Program-made: the position numbers and the translations under genes
Shown here: in pieces, positions 37,524-38,210 of the stretch
How the letters are laid out: each line of letters opens with the position of its first letter
Numbering within the stretch: the first letter of the stretch is position 1
The notes under the pieces: model-generated
What the model was told of the DNA's origin: nothing
Seen by the model: only the letters and a program-made list of their open reading frames with translations
Database searches by the model: none
NCBI GenBank assembly: GCA_964610735.1
Contig: CAZSYH010000005.1
Coordinates: 5,912 to 69,911, forward strand
Source: an uncultured Syntrophaceae bacterium
GTDB lineage: Bacteria > Desulfobacterota > Syntrophia > Syntrophales > UBA2210
Length of the DNA: 64,000 nucleotides
Direction of reading: 5' to 3'

Positions 37524-38210
37524 ATGAAACTGTCGCGGCGAGATGTACTTCATATAATCATCAGCGGTGCCATATCGGGAATCGTTTTTATCTTCTTCAA
37601 GGTTTCTGGAGCAAAGGCATTGCCCCGTCCGCCGGGGTCACTCATTGAAAACGAATTTCTGAAGTACTGCACCCGATGCTACAGATGCATAGACGTGTGC
37701 CCTGCCGACGCGCTTAAACCTGCCGGCATTCTTGACGGCATAACCAACCTGGGCACACCGGTTCTCGATTGGAAGAAGTGTATCATGTGTATGGAATGTG
37801 TCAGAATATGTCCCACCGAAGCTATTAAGAAAGTCCCCAAAAAAGAGATTGATATCGGAAACGCGGTGATCGAGCCCGACACATGCCTCTCCTGGCAGAA
37901 AACGAGCAGATGCAAAAATTGTTACAAGGCCTGCAAGTATGATGCTATCAAGCTGGAAAAGGGGCGATTTCCCGTTGTCATAGAGGAAAACTGTACGGGT
38001 TGCGGCGCCTGTGAGCAAAGGTGCCCGACCGACCCTAAGTCTATTGTTGTACATTACGACAAGGTTAAAAGATTTGATCCTTCCGGAAATCGATTTGTTT
38101 TACAACTTGAAGATCGAGTAGGGCCTTATGATTTTCCTCAGTCTGATTTCAAAACATGGTTTGCAGGCAGGATGGAGAAGCTGGCCAGACACTATGGGAT
38201 TATAAAATAA
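37524..38210 (+). CDS. NapG/MauM-like ferredoxin with twin-arginine N-terminus
   Basis: SRRDVL plus a hydrophobic segment, then [28 protein letters not shown], which parallels E. coli NapG [28 protein letters not shown] as recalled. Four Fe-S motifs are present. Confidence 0.8.
   Translation: [228 protein letters not shown]

Follow-up and report, generated by a model that had tools for sequence, protein, structure and literature searches.

The window analysed here, a stretch of 64,000 nucleotides of contig CAZSYH010000005.1 (positions 5,912 to 69,911) from an uncultured Syntrophaceae bacterium, carries a compact array of eleven genes on its + strand at 34716-47707. Two of these genes encode relatives of the nitrate reductase components NapG and NapH. 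Our analysis suggests that, as fixed subunits of an eleven-gene redox complex of Desulfobacterota, these two proteins link a periplasmic aldehyde:ferredoxin oxidoreductase (AOR) with a cytoplasmic formate dehydrogenase-heterodisulfide reductase (Fdh-Hdr) module across the membrane, a reading to which we assign a probability of roughly 0.65. Support for it comes from homology, domain composition, predicted topology, twin-arginine (RR) motifs, gene order and the lack of nap genes in the vicinity. Both proteins belong to orthologous families of their own and are not components of a nitrate reductase. Formation of the complex, export of AOR, the direction of electron flow, the substrate and any involvement of quinones are inferred. 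The eleven genes are, in order:

34716..35432, + strand: predicted Tat (twin-arginine translocation)-exported four-cluster ferredoxin, AOR small subunit of the WorS type, 238 aa (TIGR01409, structure matches)
35432..37237, + strand: aldehyde:ferredoxin oxidoreductase large subunit WorL, 601 aa (AFOR_N, AFOR_C)
37524..38210, + strand: NapG-like four-cluster ferredoxin, predicted periplasmic, 228 aa (profiles, BLASTP, cysteine groups)
38270..39529, + strand: HdrA-like flavoprotein 1, 419 aa, start inferred (HdrA2/HdrA profiles)
39538..41232, + strand: HdrA-like flavoprotein 2, 564 aa (HdrA2, 357 bits; Pyr_redox_2 and Fer4)
41304..41744, + strand: MvhD-like [2Fe-2S] protein, 146 aa (PF02662 FlpD, 121 bits)
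41747..42598, + strand: FdhB-like iron-sulfur connector, 283 aa (7bkb_E, 119 bits)
42588..44630, + strand: cytoplasmic formate dehydrogenase alpha subunit FdhA, 680 aa (TIGR01591, 821.5 bits)
44623..45084, + strand: HdrC-like two-cluster protein, 153 aa (HdrC profiles; 7bkb_C, 5odc_C)
45090/45093..46400, + strand: fusion of a WorS-like domain with a NapH-like membrane protein, 436 aa (profiles, BLASTP, topology prediction)
46397..47707, + strand: truncated paralogue of the AOR large subunit, 436 aa (PF02730 only)

Close spacing or overlaps were found from the NapG-like gene through the final gene of the unit. Two hdrA-like genes, mvhD, fdhB-like, fdhA and hdrC-like genes, and no others, stand between the NapG-like and NapH-like genes, which are therefore not adjacent to each other, unlike napG and napH in a nap (or mau) operon. 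A sequence-only reading of this DNA had pointed out that the pair is split by Hdr/Fdh genes, and the gene order confirmed it.

The 228-aa protein at 37524, taken for a NapG/MauM relative in that reading, has an RR N-terminus (SRRDVLH), a hydrophobic stretch ending in AKA, an LPRPPG motif with the expected RPPG, and 16 cysteines in four groups of four, which are sufficient for four [4Fe-4S] clusters. The best NCBIfam matches of this protein were NapG (NF007012; 90.1 bits, cut-off 269) and MauM/NapG (TIGR00397; 76.8 bits, cut-off 178.85). It showed 33% identity to E. coli NapG (BLASTP, E = 1e-23), the E. coli Nap reference proteins being taken from NC_000913.3. A search of 5.8 billion proteins recovered about 95 clusters of NapG-like proteins that are 45-93% identical, followed by a sharp fall to generic NapG/MauM proteins. 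All 26 NapG-like orthologues begin with a twin-arginine motif (SRRDxLH, SRRNFIQ, TRRKFLQ, SRRALLQ and others), and in all 26 this motif is followed by a hydrophobic stretch and an AxA-like site. Three of six NapG-like N-termini tested passed the Tat hidden Markov model (HMM).

The product of 45093-46400 likewise proved to be NapH-like, as had been proposed from its motifs. It carries GRFFCGWICPFG, of the FCGWICPFG type, and WCRYFCPVGAL, which contain two CX3CP motifs (CGWICP and CRYFCP), and its C-terminus contains a di-cluster domain with two CxxCxxCxxxCP motifs and eight cysteines. The best NCBIfam matches were NapH (NF007013; 104.8 bits, cut-off 234) and NapH/MauN (TIGR02163; 101.7 bits, cut-off 213.05). 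When the membrane half was searched alone, these families again ranked highest (106.5 and 103.9 bits, respectively), followed by NosR (41 bits) and CcoG (30 bits). A BLASTP alignment with E. coli NapH (29% identity over 271 aa, E = 9e-21) spans all helices, both CX3CP motifs and the C-terminal domain. The profile searches, which had been suggested as a check of the sequence-only reading, thus returned the NapG and NapH families as best matches, yet with scores below half of the curated cut-offs. Because BLASTP homology is combined with such scores, the two proteins are considered true but distant homologues that lie outside the equivalog families. In a library of 1.84 billion representatives, the NapH-like superfamily had 5363 members at E <= 1e-3 and only 13 at E <= 1e-30.

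Four helices were predicted in the NapH-like protein from hydropathy, charge distribution and an AlphaFold2 (AF2) model, at residues 175-198, 224-243, 273-295 and 315-335. Positive charges lie beside the inner helix ends, and, as in E. coli NapH, each of helices 2 and 4 is followed by a CX3CP motif on the predicted cytoplasmic side. The sequence-only reading had not mentioned a further domain upstream of the membrane part, at residues 40-171 (45207-45605): a ferredoxin of the WorS (AOR small-subunit) type with four clusters. No signal peptide was found in the fusion protein. Under the four-helix model and the positive-inside rule, both ferredoxin domains, N-terminal and C-terminal, are predicted to lie in the cytoplasm, beside the HdrC-like gene product; for the C-terminal clusters, a cytoplasmic position had been proposed in the sequence-only reading. 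In E. coli NapH, the iron-sulfur domain is known to be cytoplasmic. The two predicted periplasmic loops (45687-46022) carry five cysteines, C200, C211, C301, C304 and C310, which include the motif FCxxCPIGxxCRS. Across 60 family members these cysteines show little or no variation, and E. coli NapH does not have them. We also considered whether CxxCPxGxxC is specific to AOR-linked NapH-like proteins. A first sample showed the motif in 40 of 40 family members and in none of 97 others, in a locus scan that had been seeded with the motif. This specificity was rejected, because an unbiased search of representatives turned up the motif in numerous NapH-like proteins that are only distantly related; further occurrences are a Thiomargarita locus with molybdenum enzyme, NapG and NapH genes (L171) and an Anaerolineales cupredoxin locus (L180).

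The gene order of the unit is conserved. Orthologous loci were collected through fusion-protein orthologues of at least 50% identity in a one-genome-per-species collection, and synteny was assessed by tblastn of the eleven window proteins against the resulting 38 loci. The order was the same in every one of the 38 that extends far enough. A NapG-like gene is present in 26 of 26 loci reaching far enough upstream and AOR in 24 of these 26, the contigs of the other two ending just before AOR. Carriers comprise Syntrophales/Syntrophaceae, which are closest to the window (89-90%), Desulfobacterales, a Thermodesulfobacteriota metagenome-assembled genome (MAG) and Desulfovibrionaceae, including gut Desulfovibrionaceae, and thus belong to at least three orders. 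All eleven genes are syntenic in the cultured Desulforapulum autotrophicum HRM2 (Desulfobacterales), where they occupy about 1,636,500-1,649,100 of CP001087. Flanking genes differ among the window and two other loci (L164 and L081). Since a close relative with a 2.59-Mb contig and HRM2 share the same genes with different flanks, the unit consists of exactly eleven genes. Desulfovibrionaceae deviate from this layout in two respects: FdhA is missing (L109, L111, L113) or follows the truncated AOR-like gene (L105, L110, L115), relatives included, and a single protein of about 425-450 aa combines MvhD with the FdhB-like protein. The unit of one Desulfovibrio MAG (L082) is followed by a ThiF gene and three MoeA genes.

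Genes for a nitrate reductase are absent from the unit and its surroundings. A tblastn search of the window with E. coli NapA, NapB, NapC, NapD, NapF, NapG and NapH did not find NapB, NapC or NapD, and NapA matched only the cytoplasmic FdhA gene, so the earlier remark that no napA or napB lies nearby stands. Neither the window nor any of the 38 orthologous loci contained napA, napB, napC or napD. Co-occurrence was then counted in a sample of 209 NapH-like loci collected with three different seed sets. The 38 loci of the window NapH-like family contained AOR in 25 cases and HdrA in 29, with no NapA-like and no NapB/C gene. The 171 other NapH-like loci contained AOR in 4 cases, HdrA in none, NapA-like genes in 24 and NapB/C in 20, and 108 of them had a NapG-like partner. 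As a positive control, genuine nap loci of this sample (e.g. Shewanella) showed napA-napG-napH adjacency. These counts indicate that pairing of NapG with NapH is generic, whereas the association with AOR and Hdr is specific to the window NapH-like family. The sequence-only reading had suggested that NapGH-like wiring was recruited to an exported AOR and that co-occurrence with AOR genes should be analysed; the frequency of AOR (25/38 against 4/171), together with gene order, RR motifs, predicted topology and the Desulfitispora locus described below, is in favour of this suggestion.

A similar arrangement, apparently of independent origin, was found outside these lineages. In Desulfitispora alkaliphila DSM 22410 (Firmicutes; L118, 1938-11782), a WorS with TRRTFMIG and a lipobox is encoded together with AOR, a divergent NapG-like protein with SRRQFLG and IRPPGA, and a NapH-like protein of 316 aa whose cysteine pattern equals that of the window family. 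The locus also encodes a cysteine desulfurase, two TatC proteins and a 777-aa NuoF/GltD-like cytoplasmic flavoprotein. Two metagenome contigs (L166 and L167) have the same neighbourhood of flavoprotein, NapH-like and desulfurase genes. Because the periplasmic and membrane parts are the same and the cytoplasmic module is different, the Desulfitispora locus fits the prediction of a modular transmembrane link. A weaker case is a Methanocellaceae contig with NapG/NapH-like genes 8 kb from a pair of AOR and polyferredoxin genes.

The first two genes of the unit encode the putative periplasmic enzyme. The Tat-ferredoxin/AOR pair recognised in the sequence-only reading is real: the WorS protein carries SRRGFLKG and passes the Tat-signal model TIGR01409 (23.7 bits, cut-off 16.7), and the large subunit matches AFOR_N and AFOR_C in full. 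The best solved-structure matches of WorS are WorS subunits (6x6u_B, 8c0z_C and 9mqx_E), and canonical twin-arginine motifs are present in all WorS orthologues with a complete 5′ end. The large subunit scored 347 bits to Pyrococcus furiosus AOR (1aor) and 351 bits to 9mqx_D, and it retains the cluster cysteines, Glu313, His448 and the DxxGLD pterin motif. Its gene start overlaps the stop codon of WorS. AOR itself lacks a signal peptide and presumably leaves the cytoplasm in association with WorS. An assignment of this AOR as YdhV-like was rejected, as it shows 24% identity and 135 bits to YdhV and is far closer to canonical AORs.

A tungstate ABC transporter of the WtpABC type is encoded on the - strand about 10 kb upstream of the AOR unit, in the region 21299-25175. 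It consists of WtpA (23122-24165; 452 bits, cut-off 355), WtpB (22333-23121) and WtpC (21299-22411), the last with a TOBE domain. A divergent regulator (24297-25175) with HTH_17 and PBP_like domains resembles tungstate/molybdate-responsive regulators. Beside it, a 279-aa protein (25276-26115) has an N-terminal DUF4405 and an IF2_N-like stretch; DUF4405 is a family of membrane, cytochrome-b-like domains. The remaining genes of the window are unrelated to the unit and include those for a GGDEF protein, sugar-nucleotide enzymes and a protein of the metallo-beta-lactamase fold.

The unit ends with a second AOR-related gene, whose start overlaps the fusion gene by 4 bp and which is translationally coupled to it. 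The truncated AOR-like protein aligns with residues 11-298 of the window AOR and with domain 1 of 1aor. It retains domain 1 and CxxCxxxC, but little is left of domains 2 and 3, which bind the pterin; the fourth cluster cysteine is possibly kept (ILGVCPIF). Adjacency of the fusion gene and the truncated AOR-like gene is kept in most orthologous loci, the truncated AOR-like protein being only 356 aa in Desulfovibrio. As judged from its domains, the WorS-type domain of the fusion and the truncated WorL constitute a second AOR-like pair, predicted to be cytoplasmic.

The genes between the NapG-like and NapH-like genes encode a putative cytoplasmic module. They correspond to the FdhA-FdhB-MvhD-HdrA-HdrC chain of solved methanogen complexes, minus HdrB; no HdrB/CCG domain was detected by Pfam in any of the eleven unit proteins. 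Both HdrA-like proteins hold a CxGxRDx6-8CSxxCC cluster motif (CAGARDLRMIPSCSAVCC and CVGARDRKRPYCSTICC). The longest open reading frame of HdrA-like 1 begins at 38156, inside the 3′ end of the NapG-like gene. Since orthologues cover 84-94% of this long frame and the gene call in L164 is 419 aa, the ATG at 38270 (419 aa) is taken as the real start. The FdhB-like protein matches the C-terminal iron-sulfur part of 7bkb_E, from the methanogen Fdh-Hdr-Fmd complex, and lacks the F420/FAD-binding part. FdhA scored 821.5 bits with TIGR01591 (cut-off 666.25), has a cysteine at the selenocysteine position (...CARLCHAPT...) and has no Tat signal. The HdrC-like protein weakly matches QmoC (NF038018, 34 bits), and its gene abuts the NapH-like gene.

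These components suggest the following route of electrons. WorS with its Tat signal would bring the tungsten protein WorL into the periplasm. Electrons leaving AOR would cross WorS and then the NapG-like protein, each of which has four clusters, and so reach the NapH-like membrane subunit. The ferredoxin domains at the two ends of this subunit, WorS-like at the N-terminus and di-cluster at the C-terminus, are predicted to be cytoplasmic and may relay them to the HdrC-like protein, from which they would pass to the HdrA pair (FAD), MvhD, the FdhB-like connector and the cytoplasmic FdhA. The whole route could also run in reverse. The complex would thus connect the very low-potential aldehyde/acid couple of the periplasm with CO2/formate in the cytoplasm, and perhaps with ferredoxin there. 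In the methanogen complexes, HdrC passes on to HdrB, which forms the high-potential branch of bifurcation. Because HdrB is absent and the hdrC-like gene abuts the membrane-protein gene, menaquinone at the NapH-like subunit is possibly the high-potential partner, in a Qmo-like manner. Standard potentials are about -580 mV for acid/aldehyde, -430 mV for CO2/formate and -75 mV for menaquinone. With these values, aldehyde oxidation could drive a transmembrane reduction of CO2 or ferredoxin, or else formate could drive bifurcation towards quinone and the periplasmic chain.

A more specific version of this link is unlikely: the NapH-like protein may be a haem-free, quinone-independent iron-sulfur membrane wire that joins the periplasmic AOR directly to the HdrA bifurcation module and couples bifurcation or confurcation to the membrane potential. 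The CX3CP site inside and C200, C211, C301, C304 and C310 outside would then carry the electrons. Aldehyde oxidation outside could drive the reduction of CO2 or ferredoxin inside as an electrogenic redox loop; alternatively, formate and the membrane potential could drive acid reduction outside.

In place of direct transfer between periplasm and cytoplasm, AOR (via the NapG-like protein) and the Fdh/Hdr module (via the HdrC-like protein) might each exchange electrons with the menaquinone pool. The NapH-like protein would then be a (mena)quinol/quinone oxidoreductase, and the unit would resemble QmoABC with a NapH-type anchor and an added periplasmic dehydrogenase. NapH and NapH/MauN are the closest families of the membrane protein, NapGH has been described as a quinol dehydrogenase (PMC9012536, PMC8238504), and two HdrA, MvhD and HdrC-like proteins without HdrB mirror Qmo, as does the 34-bit match to QmoC. 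However, no quinone site is known or was detectable in the NapH-like sequence, and the idea leaves unexplained why AOR and Fdh/Hdr stand in one operon in every genome and why only the cytoplasmic module is swapped in Desulfitispora. We regard it as unlikely in its pure form, although it is compatible with a transmembrane link and the two do not exclude each other. Far less probable is a role in maintenance, in which the NapG/NapH-like pair, driven by Hdr/Fdh, sends low-potential electrons outward only to keep the tungsten cofactor or clusters of the exported AOR reduced and the enzyme active while catalytic electrons exit by another route, similar to the roles proposed for NosR with N2O reductase and for PceC with reductive dehalogenase. 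NosR is a NapH-like protein linked to enzyme maintenance, and the membrane domain is recognisably related both to NosR (41 bits) and to CcoG (30 bits); chaperone-like or thiol-redox features could be represented by the truncated AOR-like protein and by the additional cysteines on the periplasmic side. A cytoplasmic module of seven genes with a full formate dehydrogenase seems oversized for such a function, though, and the unit has no gene for an alternative acceptor, for instance a cytochrome c or a second membrane anchor, to which AOR could pass its electrons.

The gap between the AOR and NapG-like genes is 286 bp long and contains a hairpin. This hairpin is perfect over 13 bp (37264-37293; AATCGGGGCAGGC atca GCCTGCCCCGATT), lies 27 nt past the AOR stop and lacks a run of T. 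It may serve to process or stabilise the transcript, or act as a partial terminator that keeps the WorS/AOR message at a higher level. Promoter and terminator scans revealed nothing exceeding shuffled expectation. The gap would suit the view that the WorS/AOR genes and the genes from the NapG-like gene to the AOR-like gene are separate systems that happen to be neighbours, or that the NapG/NapH-like proteins serve a nitrate reductase elsewhere. Such a coincidence is most improbable, given that the adjacency holds in 24 of 24 informative loci across orders despite changing flanks, that none of the 38 orthologous loci has nap genes while true nap loci show napA-napG-napH, and that a sharp score gap sets the NapG-like family apart from generic NapG/MauM.

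Several points weigh against the proposed transmembrane link. The strong hairpin in the 286-bp gap makes two transcripts possible. The signal SRRDVLH of the window NapG-like protein scores under the Tat HMM cut-off, and its hydrophobic stretch could be an uncleaved anchor. E. coli NapG, a known Tat substrate, itself scores 16.2 on this model (cut-off 16.7). The AF2 model of the fusion protein has a mean pLDDT (predicted local distance difference test) of 66 and is of low confidence in the membrane domain (40-70). Foldseek matched only its N-terminal WorS-like domain, which indicates that the Protein Data Bank (PDB) contains no NapH-like membrane structure. Inward movement of electrons would oppose the membrane potential. 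Formate is not an obligatory partner, because FdhA is absent or relocated in Desulfovibrionaceae. Finally, no functional description of the combination of NapG/NapH, AOR, Hdr and Fdh was found in full-text literature searches, in which only the gene map of HRM2 came up. That genome paper maps the locus among hdrA loci as "ferredoxin", "Fe/S cluster protein" and "Aor5", uninterpreted (PMC2702500, Fig. 4 legend).

The eleven-gene unit is widespread in sulfate reducers and syntrophs, and we found no assignment of its function. If the proposed link is correct, periplasmic tungsten AORs would gain a defined electron route, a NapGH-type module would join the known links between extracytoplasmic enzymes and cytoplasmic flavin-based bifurcation, and a replacement for HdrB in a bacterial Hdr-Fdh complex would be revealed. 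The finding also matters for annotation. Pipelines label members of the unit as "NapG", "NapH" or "NapF", and these labels can wrongly imply nitrate reduction in genomes without Nap. NapH homologues without Nap have been noted in ANME (anaerobic methanotrophic archaea) and Archaeoglobus.

The unit appears to be built from known modules, namely a NapGH-type link, a Tat-exported AOR and an Hdr/Fdh module, in a combination that is apparently undescribed. With NapGH of E. coli and Wolinella it shares a Tat-type periplasmic four-cluster ferredoxin with an RPPG motif, and also a membrane protein in which four helices are combined with two CX3CP motifs and a C-terminal 2x[4Fe-4S] domain, all of these iron-sulfur parts on the cytoplasmic side. 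It differs from them in that the two genes are not adjacent, napA, napB, napC and napD are lacking and the periplasmic partner is AOR; in addition, its NapH-like protein has an N-terminal WorS-like domain and five periplasmic-loop cysteines absent from E. coli NapH.

Class V tungsten oxidoreductases are defined by a Tat-WorS in a 2026 classification, in which they are periplasmic and membrane-associated, of unknown function and with highly variable subunits; carriers include Desulfovibrio, Syntrophobacter and Desulfomonile (PMC13328260), genera that overlap the carriers of the eleven-gene unit. The unit has the defining combination of this class, a WorS with Tat signal, WorL and further subunits. 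Like E. coli YdhYVWXUT, it combines WorL and Tat-WorS with a second polyferredoxin and a membrane subunit in a predicted periplasmic orientation (PMC13328260). Class V was placed only in the YdhV clade (clade 41) (PMC13328260). In pairwise comparison, the WorL of the unit is much closer to canonical AORs (347 bits to 1aor) than to YdhV (24% identity, 135 bits). Its membrane subunit is NapH-like and not a YdhU-type cytochrome b, and an Hdr/Fdh module is attached. No description of a NapH-like/Hdr/Fdh composition was found in the text or the text-form supplements of PMC13328260.

The cytoplasmic part resembles the methanogen HdrABC-MvhD-FdhAB complex (PDB 7BKB), as homologues of FdhA, the FdhB-like connector, MvhD, HdrA and HdrC are encoded in one operon. 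Unlike that complex, the unit has two distinct HdrA paralogues, an FdhB-like protein without the F420/FAD part and a membrane protein after the HdrC-like protein; because the HdrB/CCG subunit is absent, it would have no heterodisulfide site. QmoABC also ties two HdrA-like parts, an MvhD-like part and an HdrC-like part to a membrane subunit without HdrB. The membrane part of the unit, however, is an iron-sulfur, NapH-like protein without haem b, and its partners are AOR and Fdh rather than adenosine 5′-phosphosulfate (APS) reductase. Class II benzoyl-CoA reductase (BamBCDEFGHI) similarly combines an AOR-family pair with HdrA-/MvhD-like bifurcation modules. It is wholly cytoplasmic and lacks NapGH-like or Tat parts, and the AOR of the unit is closer to P. 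furiosus AOR (347 bits) than to BamB (194 bits). A function as modular units of transmembrane electron transfer, equipped with outer domains that bind FMN, has been put forward for NapH-like proteins (PMC8238504). NosR and PceC are such Fer4_5 membrane proteins linking the interior or membrane to an extracytoplasmic oxidoreductase (PMC8238504), as is proposed for the unit; their outer domain is flavinylated and FMN-binding, whereas the unit has no FMN-binding domain and would use a NapG-type polyferredoxin in this position.

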